A DNA stretch of 64,000 nucleotides from a virus. Its lineage: Duplodnaviria; Caudoviricetes. The translations under genes and the position numbers were made by a program. Below the pieces are notes generated by a model. It saw only the letters and a program-made list of their open reading frames with translations. It had not been told where the DNA came from and made no database searches. Positions 46,434 to 64,000 of this stretch are shown here, piece after piece (positions within the stretch are counted from its first letter, which is position 1; the number at the start of each line of letters is the position of its first letter). Where the stretch lies: positions 32,001 to 96,000 of the IMG/VR virus record IMGVR_UViG_3300028833_000101. The stretch is one strand, 5' to 3'.

Positions 46434-46479
46434 TTAATAAAAATTATAAAAAGACAACTTAAAAAGTTGTTTTTTTTTA

Positions 46480-46508
46480 TTTACAAACTTCTTATTTAGT
46501 TGTATAAT
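46480..46508 (+). promoter_or_regulatory. SigmaA-type early promoter TTTACA-17-TATAAT (first in this cluster; series of about 16)
   Basis: The same architecture has -35 boxes at 47033, 48203, 48780, 49896, 50714, 54345, 56561, 59189, 60049, 60854, 61109, 61550, 62316 and 62923, and at 36211 with 16 nt spacing. Several have TTTACT and 50714 has GATAAT. Confidence 0.85.
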
Positions 46509-46527
46509 ATAAATAAAGGATTAAAAT

Positions 46528-47001: not shown

Positions 47002-47080
47002 GATAATTAAATAAAGAAACTTGTAAAAACTATTTACAAGTTTCTTTTTTTGTGGTATAATATAAATGTGAGGTAAAAGT

Positions 47081-47518
47081 ATGGAAACTATTGTTAGAGA
47101 AAAAACAACTTATGGATTTGTTTTATTTGATAAATATATTTTATGTGATATTAAAACATATCCAGCAAATGATGTCAATTTTAGACGCTTAGATGAAATT
47201 GATAAGAAAAAAGCTAAAATCAGACAATACAATAGTTTAAAAGTTTTAAGAAAAGAAGTACCTGGACATTTACAACAATGGCGTTATTGGTTACCTAAAC
47301 ATAAAGAAAGTGAATGGCTTAAAGATAAAGTTGAACCTTGGTGGGACGAAATTTATACTTTAGAATCATTACTAAAAGAAGCTGGCTTTGGTGAAGCCGG
47401 TTTTGGTGGAATTGGTGCTTTAAGCAGCTGGCATGATACTGGCGCTTGGGAGTATTGTATTAAGCACAAGTATTTTAAAATTATTAAGATTAAAGAAAGA
47501 TTAATTTTTGAAGAATAA
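47081..47518 (+). CDS. Hypothetical early protein (paralog of 47823)
   Basis: Shares DKYILC and IRxYxSLKxL with 47823. Confidence 0.75.
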   Translation: METIVREKTTYGFVLFDKYILCDIKTYPANDVNFRRLDEIDKKKAKIRQYNSLKVLRKEVPGHLQQWRYWLPKHKESEWLKDKVEPWWDEIYTLESLLKEAGFGEAGFGGIGALSSWHDTGAWEYCIKHKYFKIIKIKERLIFEE

Positions 47519-47555
47519 GTATTTACAGACAAAAATATTTAGAAAGTAGATTAAT

Positions 47556-47819
47556 ATGAAAATTGAAATAGAAGTTAAATTTAATATTGATGATAAGGTG
47601 TTAGTTAAAAAGCCGCATAGTGGAAGCTATCAAAAACCAGAACCATTTATTGCAGTAATTGGTGGCTATACAATTACTAAAAATAAAAGATCAACTACAG
47701 TTAGATATACCCTGGAGCCACTTATTAATGATGGTTATTATCATTTTAATGCTGGTATCTCTGACTGGAACCGTAAAAAGAAATATAGTGTCAATGAATT
47801 AGAAAAAATTGAGGAATAA
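47556..47819 (+). CDS. Small SH3/KOW-like hypothetical protein
   Basis: KFNIDDKVLV...ELEK. Confidence 0.7.
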   Translation: MKIEIEVKFNIDDKVLVKKPHSGSYQKPEPFIAVIGGYTITKNKRSTTVRYTLEPLINDGYYHFNAGISDWNRKKKYSVNELEKIEE

Positions 47820-47822
47820 ATT

Positions 47823-48194
47823 ATGAAACATTTGCATAGAGAAGTTATTGGCTATACTGTTATCATTTTAGATAAATATATTTTATGTGGAACTGCTAAT
47901 AATTTACAATGGAAAGATTTAGAAAATTTAGGAAGAGTTAATATTAGGCACTATAAAAGTTTAAAAATTTTACTAAATAATTTATGGTATCATATGACTG
48001 ATTATGGTAGCAACAATTTTAAGTCTATACTAGATGCTGAGTTATCTAAAGCAGGATATTTAAGATACACAGGCTATTATGAAGTTACAGATTATCGTAA
48101 AAAAGAAGCACTTAATTATCTTATTGATGCCGGCTTACTTAAAGTTGTAGAATTACAAGAAAGTATTGACATTGAAAAAGAAGTTAAATTTTAA
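47823..48194 (+). CDS. Hypothetical early protein (paralog of 47081)
   Basis: DKYILC, IRHYKSLKIL. Confidence 0.75.
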   Translation: MKHLHREVIGYTVIILDKYILCGTANNLQWKDLENLGRVNIRHYKSLKILLNNLWYHMTDYGSNNFKSILDAELSKAGYLRYTGYYEVTDYRKKEALNYLIDAGLLKVVELQESIDIEKEVKF

Positions 48195-48252
48195 TAAAGC
48201 TATTTACAAATAAAGTAGTTTATGTTATAATAATAATGCGAGGTAAATTAAA

Positions 48253-48771
48253 ATGGAAATTAAACAAATTGATTGGTCAAGAATTAAACCTAGAATTGGC
48301 AGATGGGTAAGAACAGAAGCCCATGCTGGTCAAGTTAAATACGATTTAGAATCAGACTTAGCTGACCCTTATACTATTACACAATTTACAGTTGACTTTG
48401 AAGATGAAACTGTTTCTACTGGCTGGAGAGAAGAACTTAGTGGACATCAAGAAGAAGTACCATTAACTCCAGAAGAAAACTACGAAGCCAGACAAATGAT
48501 TTCTGATTGCAGAATTATTACTGTTAGCTTTACTATTAGACCAGGGTATGAAGACCTCGCTAAAAGACAATCTGAATATATGCTTGATGGCTATGATCTT
48601 ATTAAAGTTACTATGCAGGGCAATACTATTACATTTGAAGGCAATCATCTAAACTTAAGTGATGCTGTAGCTGATGGTCATATTTCAGAATGGGCTAATG
48701 AAGACCCTGAAGTAGAGATTGATGTTGCCTGTGGTATTGATAGAGCTAACGCAGGAAACTGGGATTATTAA
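48253..48771 (+). CDS. Hypothetical acidic early protein
   Basis: Intact ORF with its own promoter and GAGGT RBS. Confidence 0.75.
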   Translation: MEIKQIDWSRIKPRIGRWVRTEAHAGQVKYDLESDLADPYTITQFTVDFEDETVSTGWREELSGHQEEVPLTPEENYEARQMISDCRIITVSFTIRPGYEDLAKRQSEYMLDGYDLIKVTMQGNTITFEGNHLNLSDAVADGHISEWANEDPEVEIDVACGIDRANAGNWDY

Positions 48772-48836
48772 AAAAACTATTTACAAATAAAAATATTTGT
48801 GATATAATATATTTAGAAAGTTGAAGTAAATAAAAT

Positions 48837-49055
48837 ATGAAAAAAATTATTATTGTTTTGGCGAATGACTGCCTTCAAAGAGTCTACTCTGATGAAAAGG
48901 TCGAAATAGAAGTCATTGATCTTGGAGATGTAGATGAAGAGCACCCAACAAGAGTTCAAAAGAAGCAGCTTAAACAACTAGAAAAATTAGAAGAAGACGC
49001 TAGTTTAACTACCAAGTGTTGGTTCTATGATAACAAACCACTTTCTTATAAATAA
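48837..49055 (+). CDS. Hypothetical early protein (similar to 63307)
   Basis: Pattern IIIVL..CLQRVYSD..IEVIDL. Confidence 0.7.
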   Translation: MKKIIIVLANDCLQRVYSDEKVEIEVIDLGDVDEEHPTRVQKKQLKQLEKLEEDASLTTKCWFYDNKPLSYK

Positions 49056-49070
49056 CGCGAGGAAATAATT

Positions 49071-49736
49071 ATGGAAAAAGAATATCAAAAAATTGGAAAT
49101 GTATTTAAGTTCGACGAAAAGTTTAGAACTATTGTTGGGCTTAATGAACCATATGAAACATTAAAGAATATTATCTGGCAAGGTACTGAAAAGATTGACG
49201 GAACTAATATTCGTGTTCATTGGGATGGTCATGACATTGAGTTCGCTGGCCACACTGATAAAGCACAAATCCCACCAAAGCTTCAAGCTTATTTAGAGTC
49301 CGTGTTCAAAGTCCCAGAAATGGAATATATTTTTGAACAAGTCTTTGGTGAACCTGAAGCGTATATCTTTGGTGAAGGTTTTGGTGCTGGAATTCAAAAG
49401 TCTGGCGGAGACTATGTAGAAAACGGAACCGATGTTTCTTTCATTGTCTTTGATGTTCAAATCGATGGTTGGGACCTTGATAGAAAGAACACTACTGATG
49501 TTGCTACTAAACTTGGTTTACCTTCTGTCCCTGTCTGCTTTGAAGGAACTCTTGATGAAGCTAAAGCTTATGTTGCTGAACATCACATGTCTACACTTAA
49601 TGGTGGCAAGCATGAAATGGAAGGCTTGGTCTTAGTGCCTCGTGATATTCAACTCTATGACAAGAAACACCATCTTATTAAGTGCAAGTGCAAATACAGA
49701 GACATGGTTAGAGCTGGTCTTGTAGAGGAAAAATAG
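49071..49736 (+). CDS. RNA ligase (Rnl2-like nucleotidyltransferase domain)
   Basis: Motif I TEKIDGTN, FGEGFG, FIVFDV, EGLVL, KCK. Confidence 0.88.
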   Translation: MEKEYQKIGNVFKFDEKFRTIVGLNEPYETLKNIIWQGTEKIDGTNIRVHWDGHDIEFAGHTDKAQIPPKLQAYLESVFKVPEMEYIFEQVFGEPEAYIFGEGFGAGIQKSGGDYVENGTDVSFIVFDVQIDGWDLDRKNTTDVATKLGLPSVPVCFEGTLDEAKAYVAEHHMSTLNGGKHEMEGLVLVPRDIQLYDKKHHLIKCKCKYRDMVRAGLVEEK

Positions 49737-49738
49737 CT

Positions 49739-49867
49739 ATGATAGTTGGAATTATTGCAACTATACTTTTGTTTCTCTTAATTTCTGGTTGTATTATTAT
49801 TGGCTTTGCCGATGCTTGTGGAGAAGCAGCTGGTGAAGAAAGTATTTATTCTGGTGGCAAAGAATAA
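49739..49867 (+). CDS. Small membrane peptide (42 aa; absent from the track)
   Basis: MIVGIIATILLFLLISGCIIIG, directly after the ligase gene. Confidence 0.55.
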   Translation: MIVGIIATILLFLLISGCIIIGFADACGEAAGEESIYSGGKE

Positions 49868-49947
49868 AAAACTTTAAGAAATTTGTAAAAAAGTATTTAC
49901 AAGTTTCTTTTTTTATGTTATAATAATTATAGAAAGTTGGTAAGCTT

Positions 49948-50703
49948 ATGAATAAAGAAACATTTGAAACTATTAAAACAAATCTTGAAGCACGAGTAAA
50001 TGAATGTAAAGCACATTTAGACCATATCATCACAACTGATGATTTAAAAACTATTACAGTAGGTGAAGCACAAGAATTAAAAGCTTGGGCAAGTAAAGAA
50101 AGTGCTATTATGACTGAAATAGTTATGGTCGATTTTTATCATATCATTGGTATGGGTGAATTAACAGTTTTACAAACTAATACTTTTATAAAACTTATTA
50201 AAGAATACATGAGTTATCGCTCAGACCTTAAAACTATTGGTGCTCATTTCTCATTAGACAACTTACCAAATCTTCCAAGTATCAGTGAGTTTACATTAAA
50301 GCAACTTGGTAATATTACGCTCACTTCTAAAGTCCGTGGTAGAAATAAAGCTGCCTCTACTTTTATTGAAACAAATACAGTAGGTGACTATGCTAAAGCT
50401 TGCCAAGACCTTGCTAGTAGTATTACTGCTGATGGAGAATGTGGACCATTCAAAATTGAAGACAATACTATTACTTTACCAACTACTTCATTAAATGATT
50501 TTATTAAAGCTATTAATCCAAATCTTAGCCGAGGCAAAATTACTTCAGCTGCTTCTTATCAAAATAATACTGGAAAAGATTATGCTGATATTTTTTGGCA
50601 ATATACAAATGAAGAACATAATGAAATTAAAGCTGTTGTCTCACGAAAGAATGGATACTTTACTGGAATTAAAAATAAATTAAAAAATATTTTTGTAAAA
50701 TAA
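49948..50703 (+). CDS. Hypothetical early protein
   Basis: Intact 251 aa ORF behind an early promoter. Confidence 0.75.
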   Translation: MNKETFETIKTNLEARVNECKAHLDHIITTDDLKTITVGEAQELKAWASKESAIMTEIVMVDFYHIIGMGELTVLQTNTFIKLIKEYMSYRSDLKTIGAHFSLDNLPNLPSISEFTLKQLGNITLTSKVRGRNKAASTFIETNTVGDYAKACQDLASSITADGECGPFKIEDNTITLPTTSLNDFIKAINPNLSRGKITSAASYQNNTGKDYADIFWQYTNEEHNEIKAVVSRKNGYFTGIKNKLKNIFVK

Positions 50704-50762
50704 TTAATAATTGTTTACAAATATAATTTTATATGAGATAATATTAATGTGAGGTAAAAAAT

Positions 50763-51023
50763 ATGACTGTAAAAGAATACTTAGAAGTTCATAGTAGTAA
50801 AGATATTGAATCAATCGGTATTTATTCAGCTACTAAAATTAAGGATGCTTGTGATAGAGATACTGATGTTATTGATACTGATGTTCAACCTGTTGATTTA
50901 GTTAAATATTTAGAAAGAGAAGTTGACCATGTTAGCTTAGGTATCTTTGATGAAACAAGAAAAGCTATTGATGGAACAGACTACAATGCCAAGTTCATTA
51001 GAGCTTGTATTTATGTGAGGTAA
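50763..51023 (+). CDS. Hypothetical early protein
   Basis: MTVKEYL start, with promoter and GAGGT RBS. Confidence 0.75.
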   Translation: MTVKEYLEVHSSKDIESIGIYSATKIKDACDRDTDVIDTDVQPVDLVKYLEREVDHVSLGIFDETRKAIDGTDYNAKFIRACIYVR

Positions 51024-51028
51024 TAATT

Positions 51029-51517
51029 ATGTTTCCAGATTTATTAGATGCTCTTAGTGAATATAGTAGTTATTATACTAGTGATGTTGATCCAGAAGTT
51101 GAAGATGCTTTTAAAAGTATTCTTAAAAAAGTTTGGCATGAACACGCCACGAAATATATAGATAATACTGGAGATATTACTGGAGAAGCTCGTTCAATCT
51201 TAGAAAAAGCTTTACAATTACTTCACAAAAATAAAAACATTCATCTCAGATTCGATTTGAACTCTGAGAAGTGTAAAATGTATCAAATACAAGACCCAAG
51301 AAAGTTAAGCCCACAAACAATTTTACAATTAGAAGTAAAAGAAGGCTTAGATAAACAGTATATCAAAGCTACTATTAGTAATGAAGCTTTCACCGCTAAT
51401 TGGTTACCAACTGATGACTATGCTGGTATTTCAAAAAGAATTAAAGATTTAGATACCATAACTTATCGTGGTATTAGACTTGCTTATATTATTTATCAAG
51501 CAATTAAAGATAATTAG
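51029..51517 (+). CDS. LRxAY-family paralog 10 (early, TGG only)
   Basis: ILEKALQLLHKNKNIHL...YRGIRLAYIIY. Confidence 0.75.
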   Translation: MFPDLLDALSEYSSYYTSDVDPEVEDAFKSILKKVWHEHATKYIDNTGDITGEARSILEKALQLLHKNKNIHLRFDLNSEKCKMYQIQDPRKLSPQTILQLEVKEGLDKQYIKATISNEAFTANWLPTDDYAGISKRIKDLDTITYRGIRLAYIIYQAIKDN

Positions 51518-51521
51518 GAGT

Positions 51522-51860
51522 ATGAATATGTATAAAGTAAAATGTATCGCTGATGGAATGATTGTCTGGAAGGGCACTACTGTCATAGGAATTAAAGGTT
51601 TGACTTTGCCTGAGATGTTTAATGAATGTGATTGTGTAAAACTTCCAGGAAACGCTTTCGATTATTCACTTTCACCCTCTAATAAATATACAGAAGAACA
51701 ACTTGCTTTTATTAATAAAGCAGAAGCTGAGTGGGCTGAAGATGGTGGTGAAGAAATCGATCATGAGCCTGAGTATGGAATTAAGTATGGCGAAGATGAT
51801 GACGTCCCACTAATGGATTTATTTGGCCAAAGCATTCCAGACGATGACTTGCCGTTTTAG
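51522..51860 (+). CDS. Hypothetical protein with SSB-like acidic tail (DDDLPF)
   Basis: AGGAG precedes ATG 51522/51528. C-terminus IPDDDLPF. Confidence 0.65.
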   Translation: MNMYKVKCIADGMIVWKGTTVIGIKGLTLPEMFNECDCVKLPGNAFDYSLSPSNKYTEEQLAFINKAEAEWAEDGGEEIDHEPEYGIKYGEDDDVPLMDLFGQSIPDDDLPF

Positions 51861-51877
51861 CTTCAAAAGGTGAGAGA

Positions 51878-52105
51878 ATGAAAATAACAACTAATGAACA
51901 ACCTTTAATCATAGACTTAGAAAAAAATGAAACATTAACTATATCAAGTACAATAGTAATGATAAAGCATGTTTTTGATTTATCTTTGTACAAAACCGTC
52001 AGACTAAAAGTTTACAATAATATATTTATAGTTGAAGCTGAGAACAAAAATAATGGCAGTAAATTAATCAGGGCTTTTTCTGATACTTGGGGGTTTTCTA
52101 TTTAA
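51878..52105 (+). CDS. Hypothetical protein
   Basis: Intact ORF with AGGTG RBS. Confidence 0.6.
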   Translation: MKITTNEQPLIIDLEKNETLTISSTIVMIKHVFDLSLYKTVRLKVYNNIFIVEAENKNNGSKLIRAFSDTWGFSI

Positions 52106-52305
52106 TGAAAAATAAAGAAATAGTAAAAGCATTAAAGGGAAGTTGGAAAGACAAACCAGTAGAAGTTCTCGTTAAAATTGAGGGCGGACTATACTATCCA
52201 ATTAAAGAAATAGTCAAAAACAAGGATGGTACTTTTACTATTATAGGCAGAAACTTAACTGAGCATTCCGTCATAGGGCCTGCCAAATGGTATAAGAATA
52301 AATAG
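52105..52305 (+). CDS. Hypothetical protein
   Basis: TAATG-coupled to the previous gene. Confidence 0.6.
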   Translation: MKNKEIVKALKGSWKDKPVEVLVKIEGGLYYPIKEIVKNKDGTFTIIGRNLTEHSVIGPAKWYKNK

Positions 52306-52472
52306 AGCTTCTGCCAAAATACACTCATAGTAGGACAAAAAGTTTAAGACTTCTGTCAAAAGCAGAAGTTTTTTATTTCTTTGTTTGTAAATCTTTGTCA
52401 CTTTTGTCACTCAAATGTCACTCAAATAAAAGACTTGACAAAAAGTTGAAATTCAATTTTTTGGCAAATAAT

Positions 52473-52483
52473 TTGCTAAATTA
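52473..52483 (+). promoter_or_regulatory. Putative late promoter TTGCTAAATTA
   Basis: Head of the second paralog array. Confidence 0.75.
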
Positions 52484-52489
52484 TACAGA

Positions 52490-52918
52490 ATGAACAAAGA
52501 TTACAACCAAGAAAGATTTGACTTATTAGAAACTTTGAAGACAGATGTTGCCAGAATGATCAGACTTAAAGACCTGCCGGCAACCTGCCATTCTTTAACT
52601 GCAATTAGTGGAAGAGATGGTAGAACGGAGCTAGTATTGGAACTATTCGTCGACATATTAAATACAGAGAAAATCGCCCGAGTTTACTTATACATTACAG
52701 AGGACATTTTTGACCCAGATGGCTTTGAGTTTATAAATAGTGACATAGGTCTTGGAAATAAAAAAGTAGACACAAAAACCTTCATTAAACTTAGAGCCCT
52801 CAGAACAGTATACAATGTAATAAAAAACGTAAGCACTGGATATGCAAATGCAGTCGACCCAAATAAAATAATATATGTCAGAACACAAAAAACAGGTGTC
52901 TGTGATTATAGGAATTAA
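52490..52918 (+). CDS. LRxAY-family paralog 11 (divergent, near-leaderless)
   Basis: TDVARMIRLKDL...TFIKLRALRTVY. Confidence 0.68.
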   Translation: MNKDYNQERFDLLETLKTDVARMIRLKDLPATCHSLTAISGRDGRTELVLELFVDILNTEKIARVYLYITEDIFDPDGFEFINSDIGLGNKKVDTKTFIKLRALRTVYNVIKNVSTGYANAVDPNKIIYVRTQKTGVCDYRN

Positions 52919-52922
52919 TAGT

Positions 52923-53303
52923 ATGAGTTACCCATATAGACCACAAAAAGAATGAGACATAATAAATATAGTCAAGAAAGCAATCAGGACCTTAAATAAG
53001 AAAAAAGGGACTACTTTAAAGATGGCCAATATTAGCTTTGGTCAAGGTGTGGACAGCAAGTATGGTTCAGGACAATTAGATACCACAATAAGTTTAGTAG
53101 TGCAGGAAACAATAAGTAAAAGAATAATGAAGCTATTCTGATATGAAAGCTTCTTTAATCCTGACTTGCCTGATGATAAAGACGAAGTTTCAGGAGTAAA
53201 TAAAGTAAGTAATCCAGGAGACAAAGTATTGCTTAGAGTTGCTTACTGCATTTGGTTTGGCAGACACTGGATGTCAGCGCCACAAAAGAAAAATAAAAAA
53301 TAA
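52923..53303 (+). CDS. LRxAY-family paralog 12 (code 4; absent from the track)
   Basis: IVKKAIRTLNKKKGTTL...KVLLRVAYCIW. 2 TGA. Confidence 0.75.
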
Positions 53304-53313
53304 TGGTGATAAT

Positions 53314-53679
53314 ATGGAAATAAATAGTAAATATTCTACACTTATTACTTCAGCTTGTGAAAGGGTACAAAGAGTTAAAGGAATTAATGTTTTTCTTTCT
53401 AGTATAGAATTTTATGGTGTTCATAAATACTCGCATGACAATGTATATAAGATAAATCTTATAACCGATAATGGACTCCTTACTATCTATCAAGAAGAAG
53501 AAAACTTTAAGTATTGGGCTGATGTCCCATGGTCTGGCTTGGAAGAGTTTAGACCAGCAGACTTTGATAGCTGATCAGAATATAAGAAGTTAATGCTTGC
53601 TTGGTGCTGGGCAATTTATAAATACTGTAAAGACTGGGGAGACTACCAAAATACAACGCCACCACCAATTGAAGAATAA
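53314..53679 (+). CDS. LRxAY-family paralog 13 (divergent, code 4)
   Basis: LITSACERVQRVKGINV...KKLMLAWCWAIY. TGA at 53572. Confidence 0.65.
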
Positions 53680-53743
53680 ATTAAAAGGTATCTTAGAGAT
53701 ATCTTTTTTATAACTCTTAAAAAATAATCTGCTAAATTATACT

Positions 53744-53870
53744 GAGAAAAAGCTAAGGCAATTGCTATTGGCTTCTTTTTTAATAATTTAATAAAAAACA
53801 TTTGCTATAATTAATTGAAGGTTGTTAAAAAGGCCGAAATAGGTTTTTGGTCAAATATCCTTCTTTTTTT
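53744..53870 (+). ncRNA. Two putative late-promoter mini hairpin RNAs (53744-53781 and 53817-53870)
   Basis: CTGCTAAATTA at 53729 and TTGCTATAATTA at 53802 are each followed by a hairpin and T run, with no ORF. Confidence 0.45.
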
Positions 53871-53899
53871 ATACTCTTTTGCGCCGTATAATATAATGT

Positions 53900-54325
53900 A
53901 TGAATTTTAATATTATAGACCAAGCAATAAAATTAGTAAGAGATAAATTCAAGATAGATTTTACAGTCAGCCAGTATACAATACAGACGGACCCAGAAGA
54001 CATAACAATTGGCGGAGTTGCCCATCACATCTATAGAGAGCCAGAGCTTAGGATGAGTATCACTGTAGTAAAAGGTCGTAATTCTTGGACCAGCTATACA
54101 GACTTAGATTATGTGATATTCGGAAGCGACCTACGAGATGGAAGCTTGATAGATGAAATCATCGGTGGAAATATCAAAGGTTATGAATTAGACATGAGAC
54201 AAGCTCTGAGACTCGCCTTCATCATATATAATGGAATCCAGTATGGCGTAAGCGGAGAGATGAAAAAAGATTATATAGACAAAGGCTGGCATCCAAGAGT
54301 AGTAAGTTCAAGAATGAGGTATTAA
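53900..54325 (+). CDS. LRxAY-family paralog 14 (leaderless)
   Basis: IIDQAIKLVRDKFKIDF...QALRLAFIIY. TATAAT lies 7 nt before ATG. Confidence 0.72.
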   Translation: MNFNIIDQAIKLVRDKFKIDFTVSQYTIQTDPEDITIGGVAHHIYREPELRMSITVVKGRNSWTSYTDLDYVIFGSDLRDGSLIDEIIGGNIKGYELDMRQALRLAFIIYNGIQYGVSGEMKKDYIDKGWHPRVVSSRMRY

Positions 54326-54381
54326 AAAATATCTCATTTTTTTATTTACTTTTAAAGGCAACTATGGTATAATATAAATGT

Positions 54382-55536
54382 ATGAGTAAGATTATCGGAA
54401 CTTGTTTAGGAGAATATGTAAAAGAGGGAGATGTTTTATATGACCCTCAAACAGATACATATAAGATAAAGGCCGGAGATAGACTAGTGGAAATTGATGG
54501 CCACGTTTTGCAATCTGAAAGTCTAAGAACTTTACAGGAAGCCTTAAGCAATGTAGACGACGAAAACATTAAGATAGATATGTTAGGTAGTTGGGCTAAA
54601 GACCTCGACGCAAAATATAGAAGAACTTACTTAGGCGACTGGGGACCGGACAGAACAGATGAAGCTAAGACAGCAGTAGAGGCAGCGGCTGAGGCAGAAG
54701 CAGAGGCGAGAGCGAAAGCAAGGTTCGCAGAGGCGAGAGCGAGGATGTCAGAAGCGAAAGCAATGAGTAGCAAAACAGCGGCTGCGGCAGGTCCTGCAGG
54801 AGCGCCTTTTGACAGTCAGAGCTTCGACCCCTTGCGTGCGCGCGTTGAAGCCGAAACAGACTCTGGAGCCTGGAAGATAGATGGCCTCGGAGCCCGCATC
54901 AGACCAGTGGACACCGGAGACTGGAACGTCCGCTTCACCGATAAAGCCGCTGAGAAGCTTAGGGAGAACAGCGTCTACGGTAGTGGCGTCGGAACGGCAA
55001 GCCACACCTCCGCGCCCTGGGACGATCCTCTAAAGGACCAGATAGACAAAGCTAGTAATACTGTAGCTTGCTGCGACTTACCTGAACTAAAGCCTGACTA
55101 TAATCCTAATGATAAGGTGAAAGTATATTACCATGATAGATTTCCTTCTATACCTATTCGTTCTATAATAGATGACGCGATTGAATTACTAAATAATAAG
55201 AAAAATTTACATATATCTAAAATTTCTTTACACAATGAAAAATTCAGCGACAAAGACTATAGACTTGCGATATCCTCTAGAATTCCCGAAAGACCAGGAT
55301 ATATAAAGACTTTAGAAGTAGCAATTAATCATACGGCGTTCGACAGAGCCTACAAGACAGAGCTGGACGGATATGCCAAACTTAAAGCCAGACTTGATAC
55401 AAATACTTATATTAAACTTAGAATTGCTTTCTTACTATACCAGGCCTTGAAGCTGCGAGATGAAGACGCCAGAAAGATAAGCTTGGACATCTTTAGAATT
55501 ATAGGCAGCGATACAAGACCAGGATTTCACTTTTAA
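54382..55536 (+). CDS. LRxAY-family paralog 15 with long N-terminal extension and GC-rich Ala-rich linker
   Basis: C-terminal IIDDAIELLNNKKNLHI...YIKLRIAFLLY. Early promoter at 54345. Confidence 0.75.
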   Translation: MSKIIGTCLGEYVKEGDVLYDPQTDTYKIKAGDRLVEIDGHVLQSESLRTLQEALSNVDDENIKIDMLGSWAKDLDAKYRRTYLGDWGPDRTDEAKTAVEAAAEAEAEARAKARFAEARARMSEAKAMSSKTAAAAGPAGAPFDSQSFDPLRARVEAETDSGAWKIDGLGARIRPVDTGDWNVRFTDKAAEKLRENSVYGSGVGTASHTSAPWDDPLKDQIDKASNTVACCDLPELKPDYNPNDKVKVYYHDRFPSIPIRSIIDDAIELLNNKKNLHISKISLHNEKFSDKDYRLAISSRIPERPGYIKTLEVAINHTAFDRAYKTELDGYAKLKARLDTNTYIKLRIAFLLYQALKLRDEDARKISLDIFRIIGSDTRPGFHF

Positions 55537-55574
55537 AACTTAGTTAAAGGCTGCTTAGACAAACGAAACACAAT

Positions 55575-55606
55575 AAGCCAGGATAAATTTATATCTTGGC
55601 TTTTTT
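55575..55606 (+). terminator. Rho-independent terminator
   Basis: AAGCCAGGATA-AATTTA-TATCTTGGCTT plus Ts. Confidence 0.75.
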
Positions 55607-55961
55607 CGTGCCCCAAAACGCCCCGTTTTGCTTTTTGCCCGAAATTGGTACATTTTCGTTTTTTAGCTTTTCCGAATTTGCCCCGTTTTCGTTACTGGCC
55701 AGATCCGCGATCCAGGGCGTCCGAAATTAGTACGTTTTCAAAAAACGAAATCACCCCAGTTTCATATTTGAGCCATTATTCATATAAAGCCGAAATCACC
55801 TCGTTTTCAAAAATGGCCAATTTGGAGCAATTTCATTTCAGGGTAGATAAAATACCTCGGAATATAAAAAAACGTCACAGAATGCGATTGTGACACATCT
55901 GTGACTATTCTAAGCTTTCGCCATATTATGCAGATGAAACCAAGACAATTTCAATAGCTAT

Positions 55962-56250
55962 AAAATAAAAGCGACGACTCAGAGCCTGGAAAAGAGAGAG
56001 GTGATGGCTCGTTGTGTGTCGTCGCCGGGACCGAAGCCCCTGAAAGGAGGTAATTGTCATATAAGGAGATTTGACTCATTAAACTGCCCGAAACCTTACT
56101 GACTTAGTTTTATCATGCGGTTTAAGTACGTATCGTTAGTTAGTCTTTTTGACACTCTATTGATTACCTATCGTCTATTGATTATCTATCGTTATACGTA
56201 TCGTTCTGAGGCGGTCCTTTACATTATCGGCAGTTTTTCGGTCGCCTCAT
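55962..56250 (-). ncRNA. Putative ~290 nt sRNA with three anti-SD elements
   Basis: Minus-strand TTGTATAAT (-10 at 56256-61), 5' hairpin, cUUCGg tetraloop, and a terminator stem GCGACGAC/GTCGTCGC followed by a U run. Confidence 0.7.
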
Positions 56251-56309
56251 ACTATATTATACAATTCAAATCTAAATTTTAACAACTTTTTTTAAATTTT
56301 TGTAATTTC

Positions 56310-56960
56310 AACTTCGTGCGTGTGCATACGTGGCGGCGCGCCAGTATTCTTAATCCTTAGAAGAATACCGTGCGTGGCCATGTGCGTGCGTATATACTAA
56401 AGCTTTCAAATCAGGGCGATTTCAAATGCTATGAAACTCAGGCAATTTCAAGTGCAGGTTAATAACAACTTATATATGATCTATCTATCTAACGATAGAT
56501 CATATATAAGCTATTTTGAAGCAGCTGTAGGTTAGCCCTGTAAAAAAGTTAAAAAAACTATTTACAACTGTTTACTTTTGTGCTATAATATTGTTATAAT
56601 GGGGGGTGTTTTTTTAAAAAAAATAAAAAACCCTGAAATCGGGATATTTTAGACTGTATAATATAATAGGGAATAAAATGAAATTGGAACAATTTCATTT
56701 ATGTGTGCGCAAGCACACACGTGTAATACTAAAAAAATTCAACCTAAATAAAATTCCAAATCAGGGTGTTTTTAATAATTTAATAAATTAATAATTTAAT
56801 GATTTAATGTTTTAATAAATTATTAACACATAAATTATATGTACATGAATTATCTATATTAATTCTTAGCTAATATTTTATAGCTATAGTAGCATAGCTT
56901 ATAATATATAGCTTATATATAAGCTTTTGGCGCCCGCACACATATGTACACGTGTACAGT
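56310..56960. other. Origin- or terminus-like non-coding region
   Basis: 17-bp perfect inverted repeat at 56469-56510, alternating purine-pyrimidine tracts, AT-rich 9-mer repeats, an orphan promoter and TTCAAATCAGGG-type repeats. Confidence 0.5.
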
Positions 56961-57003
56961 AAGTACAGAATTAGAGCAAGTTCAAATCAAGGAGATTTCA
57001 GAT

Positions 57004-57309
57004 ATGGCAAATCCAGAACAAAAGAAGTGACCAGTCATCACTTGCCCACATTGTGGTTATCAGTATGCTCCAGCAGAGATATTCATGCCAGGAGATCTGA
57101 TTGGCAACCCAGAACAAGTTGTTAGAGATGCACTTGGCAAAATCATCTACCAAGAATATGATGAAGATAGTGAACCAGCACAAGTTGGGCACTACATCTG
57201 TGACGAGTGTGGAAAACCATTCATCGTGGAGCCAGTGATCACATATAAAGTCAAGAAAGAAGATGAGGCAAAAGATTTCAGTGATCTTTCCGCCAGCTTA
57301 CTAGACTAA
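57004..57309 (+). CDS. Zinc-ribbon protein (code 4)
   Basis: ATG 57004 follows AAGGAG. TGA at 57028. CPHCG and CDECG pairs. Confidence 0.75.
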
Positions 57310-57335
57310 TTTCAAATCAGGGAGATTTCGTTTAG

Positions 57336-59051
57336 ATGATCTACGTCAGAGAGATCGTTCCAAGAAAATTTTCCGGGCTAAGTTCATTCTTAGTCTCTTT
57401 TCAGTATGACCCAAAGATAGTAGAAGCGATCAAAACAGTTCCGGCCTACTACTATCACAAGAAAGATTTGTGCTGAGAGATTCCAAGTGACTATCTTGCC
57501 ACTCTTTTAGATACACTTACTTTCTTAGATAATATACAGTTGATAATGCTTCCTGAAACTGAGGTGATTCTAAACCAGGATGATTTCAGTTTGACCCAGG
57601 CGGAAATAGACCAACTTCATTTCAAACCATTTCCACATCAAGTAGATGCGATCAACTATGGCTTAAATCCGAAACACACTAAGTGGCTCTTACTAGACAG
57701 CATGGGCCTTGGCAAAACGTTAGAGATCATCGGATATGCAGAAACTCTAAAATCCAGAGGTCTTATCGATCACTGTCTCATTATTTGCGGAGTAGATTCA
57801 CTAAGACAGAACTGGAAATCCGAAATCGAGAAGTTTTCAAACTATGGTGTTAGAGTCTTAGGCGAATACATCACTAAGAATGGAACCATCAGATACAGAA
57901 CGATCCCAGAGAGAGCTGCGGAGTTAAAAGAACCAATCTCAGAATTCTTCGTAGTAATTAACGCAGCCACACTAAGACATGATGAAGTGATCGATGCATT
58001 TAAAAAATCTAAGAACAAGTTTGGTTTGATTGCAGTAGATGAAGTGCATCGCTTTGCATCATCAACATCGCAACAAGGCGACAACCTACTAAAACTAAAA
58101 TCTGATTACAAGGTTGCAGCTACAGGTACACTTTTACTAAATTCACCGATCAGCTGTTATGTACCTCTAGTGTGGACTGAGAACGATCATAGCATCTTAA
58201 CAAACTTCAAAGCTCAGTACTGTAAATTCGGCGGTTTTGGTGATAAACAGATCGTTGGATATAAGAATTTAGAGACACTGAGAGAAGAAATAAATTCTTG
58301 TATGATCCGAAGAACGTTGGATCAAGTGCGTGATGACATGCCACTAAAGAACATTACTTACCAGATAGTAGAAATGTCTGATCAACATCGTAAGTTTTAT
58401 GATGCTATAGTGGACGGTGTAAAATCAGAAGCTGATAAGATCAAGCTCAATACATCGAACTTACTTGCGTTAACCACTAGACTTCGCCAGGCTACAGCAT
58501 GTCCTAGTGTGCTTACCACTCAGAACATCGTAAGCTCTAAGGTCGAAAGAGCTGCGGAAATAGCTACAGATCTACTAGAGTCAGGCGAGAAAGTCGTAGT
58601 GTTCAGTATGTTCAAGGAATCTGTACAGGCTTTAGCTACGATGCTAGCACAGTACAAGCCGCTAATCTGTACAGGCGATTACACTGAACAGCAGATCAAA
58701 TCTAGTGTGGAAGCTTTCCAAAACGATCCAAATTCGAAATTACTGATCGGTACGCATCAGAAGATGGGTACTGGATTTACACTAAATTCAGCATCGTACT
58801 TGATCTGCATCGACACACCATGGACTGATGCTTCACTAAGCCAGTCTACAGATCGTATCTGGCGAATCACTAACAAGTATCCAGCATATGTTACCGTGCT
58901 TACTTGCGCTGATACTATTGATGAACGTGTTAGAGAGATCGTCGAAACTAAGAAGGATCTATCTGACTACATGATCGACGGTGTAGAGAATGAGCTCGCA
59001 GTTAGTGAACAGCTTTCGAATGAGATGCGCAGAATCATTCAGAACCTTTAG
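57336..59051 (+). CDS. SNF2/SMARCAL1-like helicase with N-terminal HARP-like domain (code 4)
   Basis: DSMGLGKT, DEVH, ATGT, GTGFTL, QSTDRIWR. N-terminal FQYDPKIVEAIK..C(W)EI reads through TGA 57474. Confidence 0.9.
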
Positions 59052-59109
59052 TGAATCTATGCGCGCGATGGAGAACGCGTATGCATATGTACGTGTGCGC
59101 GTTTCTATT

Positions 59110-59181
59110 TTAATAAATTAATAAATTATTAAATCATTAAATTAATAAATTATTAAATTAATAAATTATTAAATCATTAAA
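59110..59181. repeat. AT-only 9-mer-like tandem repeat (ttaataaat/attaaatca)
   Basis: Approximate inverted counterpart of 56770-56826. Confidence 0.7.
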
Positions 59182-59243
59182 AATCTTATTTACTTTATGT
59201 CCAAAATATGTTATAATATTGTTAGAATATAGAGAGGCTTAAT

Positions 59244-59462
59244 ATGACAGCAAAAGAAGAATTAAAAGAATATTTAAATTCAGCTGACCCACAAGATTTG
59301 GTTGACTGTTTGAAAGAACATTTAGAAAAAGATGCTACTGATAAAAAGCATTTCGAAATGATTTCGATACTATATTGGAATGAAAAAAATACTTTTAATA
59401 CTTTAAGTGCTGGATGTAAAGCCTCAATACTAATTTACCTAGCAATGAGAAACAGAGGATAG
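59244..59462 (+). CDS. Hypothetical early protein
   Basis: Promoter at 59189 and AGAGAGG RBS. Confidence 0.7.
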   Translation: MTAKEELKEYLNSADPQDLVDCLKEHLEKDATDKKHFEMISILYWNEKNTFNTLSAGCKASILIYLAMRNRG

Positions 59463-59466
59463 TAAT

Positions 59467-60045
59467 ATGGGAAAAGATACATTAAAAGTTATTGGTGCTT
59501 CAAATCACTGTGATGAAGAACGTTCCAAGTTAGACTATTACGGAACTGACCCGCGTTCAACTAAAGCATTATTAAGCGTAGAGAAATTCGACCACGAAAT
59601 TTGGGAACCATGTGCTGGACACCACTTAATGGTCAATACACTTATCGAAGCTGGATATCATGTGCTGGCTACTGATATCGCTGAGTACGAAGGCGTTCAA
59701 CATGCTAAGATGAACTTCCTAGATATAGAAGGTTCCTGGGATGGAGATATCATTACAAACCCACCATATGGACTATCAACTGACTTCGCTGTTAAAGCAC
59801 TTGAATTGGTAAAGCCTGGACACAAAGTTGCGATGTTTCTGAGAACTTTGTTCTTAGAAGGCACCAAGAGATATGAGAAACTCTTCAGTGTCAACCCACC
59901 AAAAACTGTTTATGTCTTCACGAACCGCCAAGTCTCAGACAAAAATGATGATTTCAACAAAGGCTCTGCAGTATCATACAGCTGGTTCGTCTGGGAAAAA
60001 GGATATCAAGGTCCAACTGAAATTAAGTGGATTTCAAGCAAATAA
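59467..60045 (+). CDS. Putative N6-adenine DNA methyltransferase
   Basis: DYYGT, IWEPCAG (motif I), IITNPPY (motif IV), YSWFVW. Confidence 0.85.
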   Translation: MGKDTLKVIGASNHCDEERSKLDYYGTDPRSTKALLSVEKFDHEIWEPCAGHHLMVNTLIEAGYHVLATDIAEYEGVQHAKMNFLDIEGSWDGDIITNPPYGLSTDFAVKALELVKPGHKVAMFLRTLFLEGTKRYEKLFSVNPPKTVYVFTNRQVSDKNDDFNKGSAVSYSWFVWEKGYQGPTEIKWISSK

Positions 60046-60083
60046 GGGTTTACAAAACCCTTTTTTTGTGCTATAATATAATT

Positions 60084-60260
60084 ATGAAACAGAAGATTAA
60101 GATTATTGACAAAACTACTGGCAAGGTTCTTGAGAAAGAAGTGGAAATTCGAAATCAAGATCATTTCGAAGTGCAACTTAGAACTCGTGCACATATTTTT
60201 CGTAATCGCAAAGCGTATAATAGAAAGAAGAAGCACAAACATGCAAACGAAGAAGATTAG
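60084..60260 (+). CDS. Small basic protein with ArfA-like C-terminal motif (leaderless)
   Basis: RAHIFRNRKAYNRKKKHK. ATG lies 6 nt after TATAAT. Confidence 0.65.
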   Translation: MKQKIKIIDKTTGKVLEKEVEIRNQDHFEVQLRTRAHIFRNRKAYNRKKKHKHANEED

Positions 60261-60435
60261 TATTGAACTTACAGAAGATGAAGCTAAAGTAGTGTCGGAT
60301 TACCTATTCAGAAAAGCTTGCAAGCTAGAAGATGCAAATTTGACTGACTCTTACTGTTATCCAAGACTATATTCTGCTTATCATAAGATTAACAGAGCAA
60401 TGGGAGATGACAAGGATGGAAATGGAACAAATTGA
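60241..60435 (+). CDS. Hypothetical protein (ends at TGA; in code 4 it would run to TAG at 60462)
   Basis: MQTKKISIELTEDEAK start. Confidence 0.65.
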   Translation: MQTKKISIELTEDEAKVVSDYLFRKACKLEDANLTDSYCYPRLYSAYHKINRAMGDDKDGNGTN

Positions 60436-60847
60436 TTTATCAGATCCAAAAAAGTTTTTTAGCGAACTAGTAAAGAAAGCATTAGAAGGAAAACAATCTA
60501 ATTTCGAATTTATCCGAGATCTTGAAATGCTTAAAGTAGCAAGGCTCTACAAAATCGGAACAAGAAAAGTATTTAGAGTGTTTAAGAGTTTGCATAAAGC
60601 TTTAATAAAAGTGTACGCTAAAGATGTTCTGACAGATGAACAAAAACTAGAAATGATCATGTCAATAAAGCAATTTGAAATCTGCTGCGAATATTATAAA
60701 AAAGAATGTGCAATCGCGAAAGACATGATTTCAGAATATAAAACTTATGTGTTTAGCGGACATATCTTAGCACAGTTATTCTTCAACGGTGTGCGACCAG
60801 ACAATGAATGTGTAGACTATAGAAAATTACCTTGGAAATTATTTTAA
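60407..60847 (+). CDS. Hypothetical helical protein (start may be 60422)
   Basis: Intact ORF. AAGGA lies before ATG 60422. Confidence 0.7.
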   Translation: MTRMEMEQIDLSDPKKFFSELVKKALEGKQSNFEFIRDLEMLKVARLYKIGTRKVFRVFKSLHKALIKVYAKDVLTDEQKLEMIMSIKQFEICCEYYKKECAIAKDMISEYKTYVFSGHILAQLFFNGVRPDNECVDYRKLPWKLF

Positions 60848-60902
60848 AAAGCATTTACAAACATGCACTAACGCGTTATAATATTATTAGGAGAAAAGAA
60901 TA

Positions 60903-61100
60903 ATGAAAGTTCAAAGTTCGACAATTTCAGAAATTAATTACGACGGAAACCTTCTTACTATCTCGTTCACGAATGGTAGAGAATATGTCTATGAAGGTGT
61001 GCCAGCCAGTATCTATGAGGCTTTCACTCAAGCGGACAGCAAAGGAAAGTATTTCCACGAGAACATTAATTATCGATACAATTATTCGAGAATTAAATAA
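60903..61100 (+). CDS. KTSC domain protein
   Basis: VQSSTISEINYD..L.I.F.NGREYVYEGVP..SKGKYF. Confidence 0.9.
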   Translation: MKVQSSTISEINYDGNLLTISFTNGREYVYEGVPASIYEAFTQADSKGKYFHENINYRYNYSRIK

Positions 61101-61191
61101 AAAAACTATTTACAAATAATTAAAAACGTGTTATAATAATAATGTAAAGAGTGAATGGCGACACTCTTAAATAAAACGGAGGTAAACAAAA

Positions 61192-61503
61192 ATGGCTAAA
61201 ACTTACATGACTGGTTGGGGAATGCGTGGAGAACGCACCGCAAGAGGTGGACGCGATGGTGTCCAATGTGCTGCACAATCTTATGATGGCAGCGTGATCG
61301 TTAGCAACAGATATGTTGAAGATGAGAATGGAAAAGAACACTTAGAGATTCGTGTTGGAACAAACGACGGTTCGAGTTGTTATTCTGACTGGAGCTCAAA
61401 CGATTTCAATGGAACATTTGAAGAGTTCAAAGCATTACTCAAACTCAATAAAGAAATTAAAGAAGGCAAAGTTTCTGTGGTAAGACACAGAATCAAGCGA
61501 TAG
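61192..61503 (+). CDS. Hypothetical early protein
   Basis: Promoter at 61109 and GGAGGT RBS. Confidence 0.75.
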   Translation: MAKTYMTGWGMRGERTARGGRDGVQCAAQSYDGSVIVSNRYVEDENGKEHLEIRVGTNDGSSCYSDWSSNDFNGTFEEFKALLKLNKEIKEGKVSVVRHRIKR

Positions 61504-61600
61504 ATTCCTCTCTTTCTGAAAAGTTGGTCTGTAAAAGATCGACTTTTTATTTACTTTTTTTCTAAAGCGTGTTATAATATTATTAGAGAGGTAAAGAGAT

Positions 61601-62017
61601 ATGAAAAATAAAAACTTAGCAAAACAAGAATATCTTGAAATGATTAAACAGTCCTGGACTTGGGCTAAACTTACAGAAGAGGAAAGAAAAAAGTTTTCGG
61701 AGTTATTAGAACATCCTTGTTCTGCAGTAGTTATTAAAGGAAACTACGATCAACGTTGGGAAGCTTGTGAAGCTTTATACCATACTTATTTAGAAGGACT
61801 TGGATATGACCCACTTCATTGGCGTGAAGGTATGGAAGAGCCTAGCGAAACAACTTATTATGAAATTGACTATAAATGCCACGGTGTAGAACAAAAACCG
61901 TTGACACTTACTGATGTCATGCAGGCTAGACGTTTGCATTCAGCTTTGAAAACTGACAGTAGAAATACAGATGTGAAGTTAATGAGAATTAAGATTATCT
62001 CGAGTGAGGTAAAGTAA
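61601..62017 (+). CDS. Hypothetical early protein
   Basis: Promoter at 61550. SWTWAKLTEEE motif. Confidence 0.75.
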   Translation: MKNKNLAKQEYLEMIKQSWTWAKLTEEERKKFSELLEHPCSAVVIKGNYDQRWEACEALYHTYLEGLGYDPLHWREGMEEPSETTYYEIDYKCHGVEQKPLTLTDVMQARRLHSALKTDSRNTDVKLMRIKIISSEVK

Positions 62018-62018
62018 G

Positions 62019-62306
62019 ATGAGCTATTATAAAGTTAAAACTACATCCGTTGATTACTGTGTTGAAGAAGAAGATATTTGTGACACTTTTGAAGAGCAAC
62101 ACCCTGAAGTAGAAGTAGACAGTGATGAATATTGTGAAGCTATCGATGCTGAAGTTACTAGACTTAAAAATAGTTTGCCACAGACGCTGGAACTTGAAAT
62201 AGAGTGCGATCCAGAAGACCTTGACGATATGGTTTGCGATGCTATCAGTGAGGAAACTGGTTGGCTTGTCAATAGCTTCACCTATGACATTCTTGAACAA
62301 AAATAA
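62019..62306 (+). CDS. Hypothetical acidic protein
   Basis: C-terminal DAISEETGWLV, a motif common in small phage proteins. Confidence 0.75.
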   Translation: MSYYKVKTTSVDYCVEEEDICDTFEEQHPEVEVDSDEYCEAIDAEVTRLKNSLPQTLELEIECDPEDLDDMVCDAISEETGWLVNSFTYDILEQK

Positions 62307-62370
62307 ATTAAAGGGTTTACAAAACCCTTTTTTCGTGATATAATAATAGTATAAGAGAGGTAATTAAAAT

Positions 62371-62886
62371 ATGGAATTAAATGGAAAAACATTAGAAGAA
62401 GTATTAAACACTGAATTAGTTGGTAAAGACGTTGGTTATTCACATTGGAACTTTACTGGTGCATTGTTAAAGGTTCTTCGTATCTTAGCGAAAGAGGCTG
62501 GTCTAAATGAAAATAATTTCAGTTATAAAACCCAAGGCACAAACTCAGTGTATCTTACTTATAAAAATATAAGTTTTGGTGATGCTACATTTCAAAAGCA
62601 AAAAGGCAAATATAAATACGGAAGTTATGAATGGACTTTTAAGAAAGTTTTCGTTAATCTTTGGAATGAAGACGGTTATTCAAGTTATAAGGGTTTAACT
62701 TTCTTAGACATGATTGCTAAGATCAATGAAGAGTTAGATGTTAAGAAAACTAGAGAACAAGCCAAACTTGAACAAGCGAAGAAAGTATTTCAAAAGATTA
62801 AAGAAGAGATTGGTGCCAAAGACGATTATGAGGTTACAAACTTCATTGAATATATGAATAAAAACAGATATTCACTTCGTCAATAA
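62371..62886 (+). CDS. Hypothetical early protein
   Basis: Promoter at 62316 and GAGAGGT RBS. Confidence 0.75.
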   Translation: MELNGKTLEEVLNTELVGKDVGYSHWNFTGALLKVLRILAKEAGLNENNFSYKTQGTNSVYLTYKNISFGDATFQKQKGKYKYGSYEWTFKKVFVNLWNEDGYSSYKGLTFLDMIAKINEELDVKKTREQAKLEQAKKVFQKIKEEIGAKDDYEVTNFIEYMNKNRYSLRQ

Positions 62887-62977
62887 TTCTTGCAAAAATT
62901 AAGTAAATTGTGTAAAAAACAGTTTACTTTTTTATTAAAACGTGATATAATTATAATAGAGAGAGGTTAAGAGAACT

Positions 62978-63307
62978 ATGAAAAAATACTTAATTCATTT
63001 TATGAGTGTTGACACCCCAAGCGTTGAGGACGATGGTATTAGTGCTGGCACAGGGTTTGGAATTCACCCACAAGCATTTGACTCAAAAGAAGATGCACAA
63101 AAATACTTGGAAGAAACTTTAATTCCAGAAGACCAAGCCAACTTAGAAGATTGCTACGGAATTACTGATGATCCTGAACTTGCTGACAATTATGAGTTTT
63201 CAGTTGAAGACGGTAGTTATGATAGAAAGCAATTAGTTGTTTATGACGCGTTCGACGGAAATGAACTTAATACAACTATCTATGAAGTCGTGGAGGTTGA
63301 ATTCTAA
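62978..63307 (+). CDS. Hypothetical acidic early protein
   Basis: Promoter at 62923. Confidence 0.75.
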   Translation: MKKYLIHFMSVDTPSVEDDGISAGTGFGIHPQAFDSKEDAQKYLEETLIPEDQANLEDCYGITDDPELADNYEFSVEDGSYDRKQLVVYDAFDGNELNTTIYEVVEVEF

Positions 63308-63480
63308 TGAGAACAGTTTATGTTGTCATCAAAGACGGAATTATTCAAGATGCTTATGCAGATCATCTTACTGATTTAGTGGTATTAGATTACGATACTC
63401 AAGATGAAGAAATGATTAAGCAACTTGATAAAGAACTTGCTAAGATTAAAGAAAGCAATGATTGTATTGAAATTCTTTAA
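63307..63480 (+). CDS. Hypothetical protein (57 aa, similar to 48837; absent from the track)
   Basis: TAATG coupling. MRTVYVVIKDGIIQDAYAD..VVLDYD. Confidence 0.7.
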   Translation: MRTVYVVIKDGIIQDAYADHLTDLVVLDYDTQDEEMIKQLDKELAKIKESNDCIEIL

Positions 63481-63493
63481 GAGGTAAGAAAAA

Positions 63494-63736
63494 ATGGAAC
63501 AAAGCATTTTAGATCAAGAAGAATTAAACAAAAGAGCCGATGAAGTATTTGACTTAAGTATCGGCGATTATGTCTACGATGTGTTTGTAGAAGATAATGG
63601 CACTGTCAGAATCCCAATGCGAGAACTTAGTGATTTAGACGGCGACTATGTTGACTTCGATTATAAACCTGATATGACAGAAAGACCAGAAGCATTAGAT
63701 TATCTAATGGGAAAGAGAGACGATTTCAATGACTAA
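63494..63736 (+). CDS. Hypothetical acidic protein
   Basis: GAGGT RBS and intact ORF. Confidence 0.7.
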   Translation: MEQSILDQEELNKRADEVFDLSIGDYVYDVFVEDNGTVRIPMRELSDLDGDYVDFDYKPDMTERPEALDYLMGKRDDFND

Positions 63737-63992
63737 GATTTATATTGTAGTAGATGCTTGTAGCGGTGAAGATTATAGCACTGATGATCCAACCATTCTT
63801 TGTGTGGATACTAATGAAGAACGTGCAAAAGATTTCTTTGAGGAAGAAATTGAAAACTGGGAAGACGGAATGACTAACTTCGATTCCAATACCACAGAGC
63901 ATTATGGTGAAACCAAGTTAGTTTATGAATGCACTGACTATGAAGGTGACTCACATAGAGTAATGAAATTAGTTGAAAAAGAAATTCAATAA
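63729..63992 (+). CDS. Hypothetical acidic protein
   Basis: Small phage protein pattern KIYIV...EERAK...EKEI. Confidence 0.7.
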   Translation: MTKIYIVVDACSGEDYSTDDPTILCVDTNEERAKDFFEEEIENWEDGMTNFDSNTTEHYGETKLVYECTDYEGDSHRVMKLVEKEIQ

Positions 63993-64000
63993 AAATTAAA

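Follow-up and report, generated by a model that had tools for sequence, protein, structure and literature searches.

Sequence comparison confirms that positions 55962-56250 of the window (a stretch of 64,000 nucleotides, bases 32001-96000 of a 104.7-kb IMG/VR virus record with a completeness of 46% by CheckV) correspond, on the minus strand, to a stand-alone structured RNA gene placed in the control region between the late and the early blocks of a phage genome. The predicted RNA, of about 289 nt, appears to define a covariation-supported family specific to one clade of recoded phages. The role that we tentatively favour for it, with a likelihood somewhat short of even, is that of a trans-acting repressor of translation initiation, whose best-fitting targets would be the early-class messages of the phage.

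Judged by its sequence, the RNA gene is an independent transcription unit, with its own promoter and intrinsic terminator and without any conserved ORF. The 5′ end of the RNA is indicated by the -10 box of a sigma-A-type promoter (TTGTTA-18-TATAAT plus an upstream A-tract, 56256-56285, minus strand, not scored as an extended -10), and its 3′ end by the U-tail UUUUAUUU (55962-55969). All the elements that follow are on the minus strand and are given from 5′ to 3′. The RNA starts with the stem-loop P1 (56207-56249), in which UGAGGCG (56249-56243) pairs with CGCCUCA (56213-56207) and whose loop contains AAACUGCC (56229-56236), the 5′ strand of a long-range, pseudoknot-like pairing with GGCAGUUU, about 140 nt downstream (56081-56088). 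A variable A-rich middle domain (56091-56206) carries six copies of N-GAUA-S, a tandem direct repeat of 18 nt (two copies, 56156-56191) and a dispersed direct repeat of 11 nt (two copies, 56127-56137 and 56195-56205). It is followed by a GUCA..UGAC hairpin (56056-56075) carrying AAAUCUCCUU (56072-56063), which is the element 1 of a previous sequence-only reading of this DNA, and by a mostly single-stranded anti-Shine-Dalgarno (anti-SD) sequence similar to the 16S tail, ACAAUUACCUCCUUUC (motif 2, 56042-56057), with a 13-nt core, AUUACCUCCUUUC. Then come hairpin H (GGGGC-UUCG-GUCCC, 56027-56040), with a G.U pair that favours the minus strand, and a two-tier intrinsic terminator (55970-56026) composed of T1 (GGCGACGAC/GUCGUCGCU) and T2 (GAGCC/GGCUC), whose 19-nt loop AUCACCUCUCUCUUUUCCA (55987-56005) includes motif 3, CACCUCUCU (56003-55995). 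Each of the elements listed by that earlier reading was found on the minus strand at the position it had given. When folded as a single sequence, the RNA is modestly more stable than its shuffled versions (z = -1.96).

The promoter, the U-tail and the G.U pairs together indicate that the transcribed strand is the minus one, since all three fit it and disfavour an RNA from the plus strand; in particular, the seven G.U cells of the homologue alignment would become A.C on the opposite strand. A small protein product was also discarded, as the minus-strand ATGs are not conserved: in an alignment with the relative L003, the ATG at 56079 is missing and the one at 56060 runs into a stop after 8 codons.

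Seven distinct homologous sequences were found in related phages from rumen metagenomes, always in the same syntenic slot, which follows the order 384-aa gene, RNA (on the opposite strand), Zn-ribbon gene and SNF2 helicase. Four of them were reached through the helicase protein alone, without the use of RNA motifs: L003 (helicase 99% identical, intergenic DNA ~81%) and L004 (helicase 82%) from IMG/VR, and L032 (helicase 78%) and L036 (helicase 72%, in a phage of 52-55% GC) from a protein database and contig look-ups. The homologues L017/L018 and L020 were retrieved from JGI metagenomes with a composite DNA pattern and are thus ascertained by the motifs themselves. The RNA is single-copy in each genome; the -10 hexamer is common to the seven homologues, and the -35 box and upstream A-tract are kept in the AT-rich ones. 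A covariance model of the 3′ module recovers all seven sequences and nothing else in the 170 kb searched, and it finds no RNA in relatives with a helicase 64-73% identical (L027, L028 and L031, plus L039 with partial coverage) as far as their sequence spans the region; in L033, the upstream sequence is too short to judge. In the same intergenic region of three of these relatives, a CCUCC is seen beside or inside the loop of a minus-strand terminator (L028 ~4100-4190, L031 ~4190-4240 and L039 ~300-377), and these elements may be diverged analogues of the RNA family. Wider searches gave no further members: an exact 18-mer scan of IMG/VR returned mostly reverse complements of ordinary ribosome-binding sites (RBSs), two composite patterns gave only chance matches in IMG/VR, and a scan of genome contigs gave one unrelated Nitrospinota match. 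Among the 4227 models of Rfam, which include RsaE, RNAIII, 6S and tmRNA, none matched at the gathering threshold, and none hit 55962-56262 even at E<=10.

A structured minus-strand RNA exposing CU-rich anti-SD elements had been proposed from the sequence, with covariation named as one way of checking it, and the helices do covary strongly and are kept by compensatory changes in the seven homologues. In the alignment of the 3′ module, 97.7% of the cells pair and double changes are seen in 13 of 19 pairs, figures that are somewhat inflated by the fit of the alignment to the model, with compensatory changes visible in the raw sequences as well. None of 500 shuffles paired as well, and sliding one partner lowered the paired fraction to 28-53%. 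Hairpin H occurs in all seven homologues with six different stem sequences. The terminator shows every cell paired and 9 of its 14 pairs changed on both sides, with six versions of the outer stem, inner stems such as GAGCC, CCGCC, AGACC and GGCCCG, and a loop that ranges from 19 to 34 nt across the family. Covariation extends to the 5′ half, where P1 appears as UGAGGCG/CGCCUCA, as UGAGGCA/UGCCUCA (L003), as UGUGAGG/CCUCACA (L004) and as GUGAGG/CCUCAC (L032), and where the long-range pairing AAACUGCC/GGCAGUUU becomes AAGCUGUUA/UGACAGCUU in L032.

On the other hand, the 5′ half is unrelated in L020 and short and GC-rich in L036, both of them without the middle domain, and this replacement points to the 3′ module as the conserved core of the RNA. 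GAUA is enriched in all five P1-type homologues, with 3-6 copies against ~0.8-1.0 expected, and the 18-mer is present in a single copy in L003. Two known types of repeat-bearing RNA were compared with this domain and set aside: a TRAP-like (G/U)AG array, in view of a spacing of 12-15 nt, and a type III (ToxI-like) antitoxin, as there is just one 18-nt tandem duplication and one 11-nt dispersed duplication and not an array of ~34-36-nt units. The neighbouring 384-aa and Zn-ribbon proteins gave no nuclease match in Pfam or PHROGs.

The core of motif 2, AUUACCUCCUUUC, is invariant in the seven homologues, which belong to phages of 33-55% GC, and the full motif ACAAUUACCUCCUUUC is invariant in five, including every member ascertained through the protein. 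When six homologues were folded (L036 was left out), motif 2 had a mean probability of being unpaired of 0.47-0.77, and the terminator loop of 0.94-1.00. Motif 3, CACCUCUCU, is kept in six of the seven sequences, and the terminator loop of L036 carries UUUCCUCCUUUCC instead; this homologue has two copies of the canonical CCUCCUUUC. The canonical Firmicute 16S tail is AUCACCUCCUUUC, and AUUACCUCCUUUC matches it at 12 of 13 positions, although the tail of the host may differ from the canonical one. The early GAGGUAA is complemented without mismatch by UUACCUC, whereas the canonical UCACCUC would form a mismatch with it. The sequence-only reading had counted three anti-SD elements, a number of functional elements that the comparison does not support: AAATCTCCTT is kept only in the closest relative, L003 (in the form AAAUCCCCUU), and the five others have unrelated sequence in its place. 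Its proposed target, the RBS at 57004, is conserved in every relative, and AAATCTCCTT shows no compensating change and does not covary with it. The two complements quoted in that reading are exact: AAGGAGATTT occurs only at 56989-98 and in the RNA gene's own complement (0.22 expected), and AGAGAGAGGT only at 62958-67 and in that same complement (0.05 expected).

The genome in which this RNA is found has a GC content of 32.6% (over the whole 104.7-kb record), with every called gene on the plus strand and no DNA match among GenBank phages. Neither the window nor the 104.7 kb as a whole contains a tRNA or tmRNA gene, and no suppressor tRNA is present there. The SNF2 helicase encoded just downstream of the RNA gene shows ~36% identity to helicases of Bacillus and Streptococcus phages and has thousands of metagenomic relatives, some of them on contigs of 217-224 kb, so that the clade is probably one of jumbo phages. 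Of the late promoter box TTGCTAAATTA, the plus strand has 18 copies and the opposite strand one. The late and structural genes (window 1-45405) employ TGA as a sense codon, which is nearly missing from the early and replication block (window 45456-64000), where TGG is used, a pattern that matches the one reported for recoded gut phages (10.1101/2021.08.26.457843). Reading TGA as sense raises the ORF coverage of the plus strand from 82% to 93%, and one ORF of 1521 aa contains 18 TGAs. The Zn-ribbon gene (57004-57309) starts at the ATG at 57004 and has an in-frame TGA at 57028-30, which is kept in L003, L004, L017, L020 and L036 but is TGG in L002, so that it encodes Trp; L039 and L033 likewise show a TGA early in this gene. 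Moreover, a 46-aa ORF (57336-57476) reads via TGA into the helicase (57336-59051), giving a form of 570-571 aa as in most relatives. Both genes therefore require TGA read-through despite their location in the so-called early block.

Several other elements surround the RNA gene. A box CAAATC-ARGGN-GATTTC, which is a 5-bp inverted repeat around an SD, is present at 56407-56423, 56983-56999 and 57313-57329; in all relatives it serves as RBS for both the Zn-ribbon gene and the helicase gene, with a gene-less copy near the RNA promoter, and could act either as a protein operator or as an RNA hairpin that presents the SD. Related TGAAATYGCC boxes lie on both sides of the RNA gene in every homologue. 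Several GAAAAC-N6-9-ATTTC(GG) repeats occupy 55641-55830 of the minus strand, and larger GAAAAC..GTTTTC palindrome arrays, which may be iterons, are found in the same region of the relatives; an 82-aa plus-strand ORF (55645-55893) that overlaps the repeats is probably not a gene. Finally, the AT-rich spacer contains a perfect AT-rich palindrome of 17 bp and GC islands of alternating purines and pyrimidines (CGCACGCACA..., ACGTGTGCGC...), at 56469-56510, 56330-56400, 56700-56725 and 56925-56960, positions that are conserved among relatives.

The phage uses two dialects of RBS, early (AGA)GAGGTAA (45456-64000) and late AAGGAG(G) (1-45405). All nine plus-strand copies of AGAGAGG precede called starts of the early region (one of them belongs to the complement of the RNA gene) and the late region has none, while 16 of 17 GAGGTAA are early and 32 of 36 AAGGAG are late. 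Relative to the 16S tail, motif 3 prefers the early translation initiation regions (TIRs) over the late ones (p=0.0002), its mean pairing being, however, not better than that of flank-shuffled CU-rich controls. When the better of motifs 2 and 3 was compared with the 16S tail, 26 early TIRs paired better and 7 worse (p=0.002), with a gain of ~1.0 kcal/mol, against 12 and 15 and no gain among late TIRs, a comparison in which choosing the best of two seeds favours the RNA and for which the late set is the sole control. Motif 2 by itself roughly equals the 16S tail, without surpassing it, in its pairing with RBSs of either class. Its strongest pairing is predicted at the RBS of a gene encoding 305 aa past the window end (genome 99146-100063, L034:3146-4063; -19.9 kcal/mol), which has the strongest SD of the genome, GAAAGGAGGAAGTTGC, kept in G001, the one relative in which it could be checked; the protein has no match in Pfam or PHROGs. 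The full invariant 13-mer has no RBS match in the 104.7 kb, and a host or phage RBS matching GAAAGGAGGUAAUUGU would account for an invariance of 13-16 nt. The earlier proposal of a translational silencer of early mRNAs thus stands in part: the loop element does complement an early-only motif and the early fit does exceed that of the 16S tail, but motif 2 is unselective. Pairing at the level of a generic anti-SD, which that reading had regarded as speaking against it, is nearly what motif 2 displays, and the early gain for the better of the two seeds speaks in its favour.

Two features of the early region bear on the targets. Many AGAGAGG boxes directly follow a -10 hexamer, so that part of the complement may precede the 5′ end of the mRNA and not be transcribed, and in many early genes the -10 box and the ATG are only ~20 nt apart, so that their leaders would be very short. 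In L036, where motif 3 is replaced by a canonical anti-SD, the RBS downstream of the helicase is still AGAGAGGTAA, and there is consequently no clean covariation between seed and target. Blocking of the prfB frameshift site was considered as well and set aside, its internal SD being inside the ribosome when it acts.

With two sequences similar to the 16S tail exposed, the RNA probably silences messages by covering their RBSs, and for its expression, timing, targets and repressive effect we infer the following pathway. The host RNA polymerase would transcribe the RNA from the sigma-A-type promoter located between the late and early blocks. The 3′ module would be the working part, in which ACAAUUACCUCCUUUC is single-stranded and the large terminator loop displays CACCUCUCU (or, in one relative, CCUCCUUUC), and both seeds would base-pair with the SD regions of mRNAs and block the binding of the 30S subunit. 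The best-fitting targets would be the phage's own early messages that use (AGA)GAGGUAA, and accumulation of the RNA would shut down early translation. The 5′ stem, the pseudoknot and the GAUA middle domain would be accessory, because they are replaced or missing in two relatives.

The same seeds could serve a less selective purpose. As a generic SD sponge, which we consider rather unlikely, the RNA would be a bulk look-alike of the 16S tail competing for all strong SDs, those of host messages first, and helping to shut off the host or to shift the balance of initiation globally, perhaps in concert with the bS21 that the phage encodes. The single mismatch in 13 between motif 2 and the canonical tail agrees with such a role, as do the ability of motif 2 to pair with every RBS class just as well as that tail, the two canonical CCUCCUUUC copies of L036, the 13-nt invariance that no single phage RBS explains and a bS21 gene placed behind a late promoter in the same genome. 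However, the phage genes themselves rely on strong SDs and would also be harmed by a non-selective sponge, ribosomes far outnumber any plausible pool of sRNA, and the U of UUACC and the CUCUCU of the loop fit the early RBSs better than a generic mimic needs.

Quite unlikely, in turn, is that the tail-like elements, and perhaps the GAUA array, act as a decoy for a protein that reads the 16S 3′ end or CU sites, such as phage or host bS21, Era, a 3′-end maturation nuclease or an anti-SD-cleaving defence toxin, in which case the RNA would titrate the protein instead of pairing with messages. A 13-nt invariance exceeds what SD pairing needs, each RNA has two tail-like copies, the repeated N-GAUA-S resembles a protein-binding array, and the phage encodes bS21, which neighbours the anti-SD in the 30S subunit. 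But Era recognises GAUCA, which is AAUUA here, and the GAUA array is missing in two of the seven homologues. Moreover, any anti-SD complement of RBSs necessarily resembles the 16S tail, so that the mimicry needs no separate explanation.

The bS21 homologue (PF01165, 51.7 bits, E=8e-15) maps to the plus strand past the window end (genome 104107-104295, L034:8107-8295), near the end of the record, where a late-type promoter box, TTGGCTAAATTA, immediately precedes it; it is free of TGA and has no close relative found in IMG/VR. Its presence in the same genome as a look-alike of the 16S tail leaves room for a more unusual joint role, which we regard as improbable. RNA and protein would form a phage kit that rewires initiation at the switch from early to late genes and from the standard code to TGA=Trp: the RNA, as a stable copy of the 16S 3′ tail, would occupy the SDs of early and host messages or compete for them, while bS21, expressed from the late promoter, retunes ribosomes to AAGGAG, or else the RNA would bind bS21 as a mimic of the tail. 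If the RNA does work with bS21, it would represent a new viral way to redirect ribosomes.

Highly improbable, finally, is a transcript whose role is transcription itself (priming, R-loop formation or origin activation) or antisense read-through control, with incidental CU motifs, as the 1.4-kb ORF-free region with its iteron-like repeats, 17-bp AT-rich palindrome and divergent early promoters might suggest, but the RNA helices are preserved by covariation, the motifs stay invariant while GC shifts by 22 points, the 3′ module is kept even where the 5′ half is replaced, and plus-strand terminators lie upstream at 55575-55630.

Coming back to the repression of early messages, phages with recoded stop codons are thought to switch the translation programme of the cell in the middle of the infection, no tools having been proposed for this beyond suppressor tRNAs, release factors and one tRNA synthetase, in a work whose authors expected "novel types of RNA molecules" (10.1101/2021.08.26.457843). 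Whether it represses early RBSs or works with bS21, the RNA described here is a short element that lends itself to tests of how translation is controlled in uncultured rumen phages. Among phage-borne RNAs, P1/P7 c4 and the prophage DicF occlude an RBS by pairing, c4 through two short seeds. In contrast to the present RNA, which has a gene of its own and generic anti-SD seeds, c4 is processed from its own operon transcript, has one linked target and belongs to a temperate phage. In bacteria, the 3′ domain of S. aureus RNAIII holds pyrimidine-rich seeds in loops that pair with the SD regions of many mRNAs. In Firmicutes, RsaE and RoxS use C-rich seeds to bind SD regions; like the phage RNA, they are stand-alone sRNAs that expose several pyrimidine-rich seeds in single strands and in hairpin and terminator loops (PMC6158497, PMC5419742). 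The phage RNA has neither sequence nor covariance-model similarity to them, and its CCUCC/CCUCU seeds are copies of the 16S tail, whereas theirs are CCCC/UCCC; unlike them, it is encoded by a phage with a lytic-type genome, measures ~290 nt and has a pseudoknotted 5′ domain. Transcriptomics has also revealed ncRNAs in the jumbo phages PA5oct, phiKZ and 201phi2-1 (PMC7318152, PMC8244752, PMC11512511). These are Pseudomonas phages, and their ncRNAs have no assigned anti-SD role and are unrelated to the family described here. A protein, the early repressor RegA of T4, binds A/U-rich start regions across many early messages, which are thereby turned off. The logic proposed here would be the same, with an RNA that recognises the SD as the effector in place of a protein, and if the RNA does repress early RBSs, it would be the RNA counterpart of RegA.
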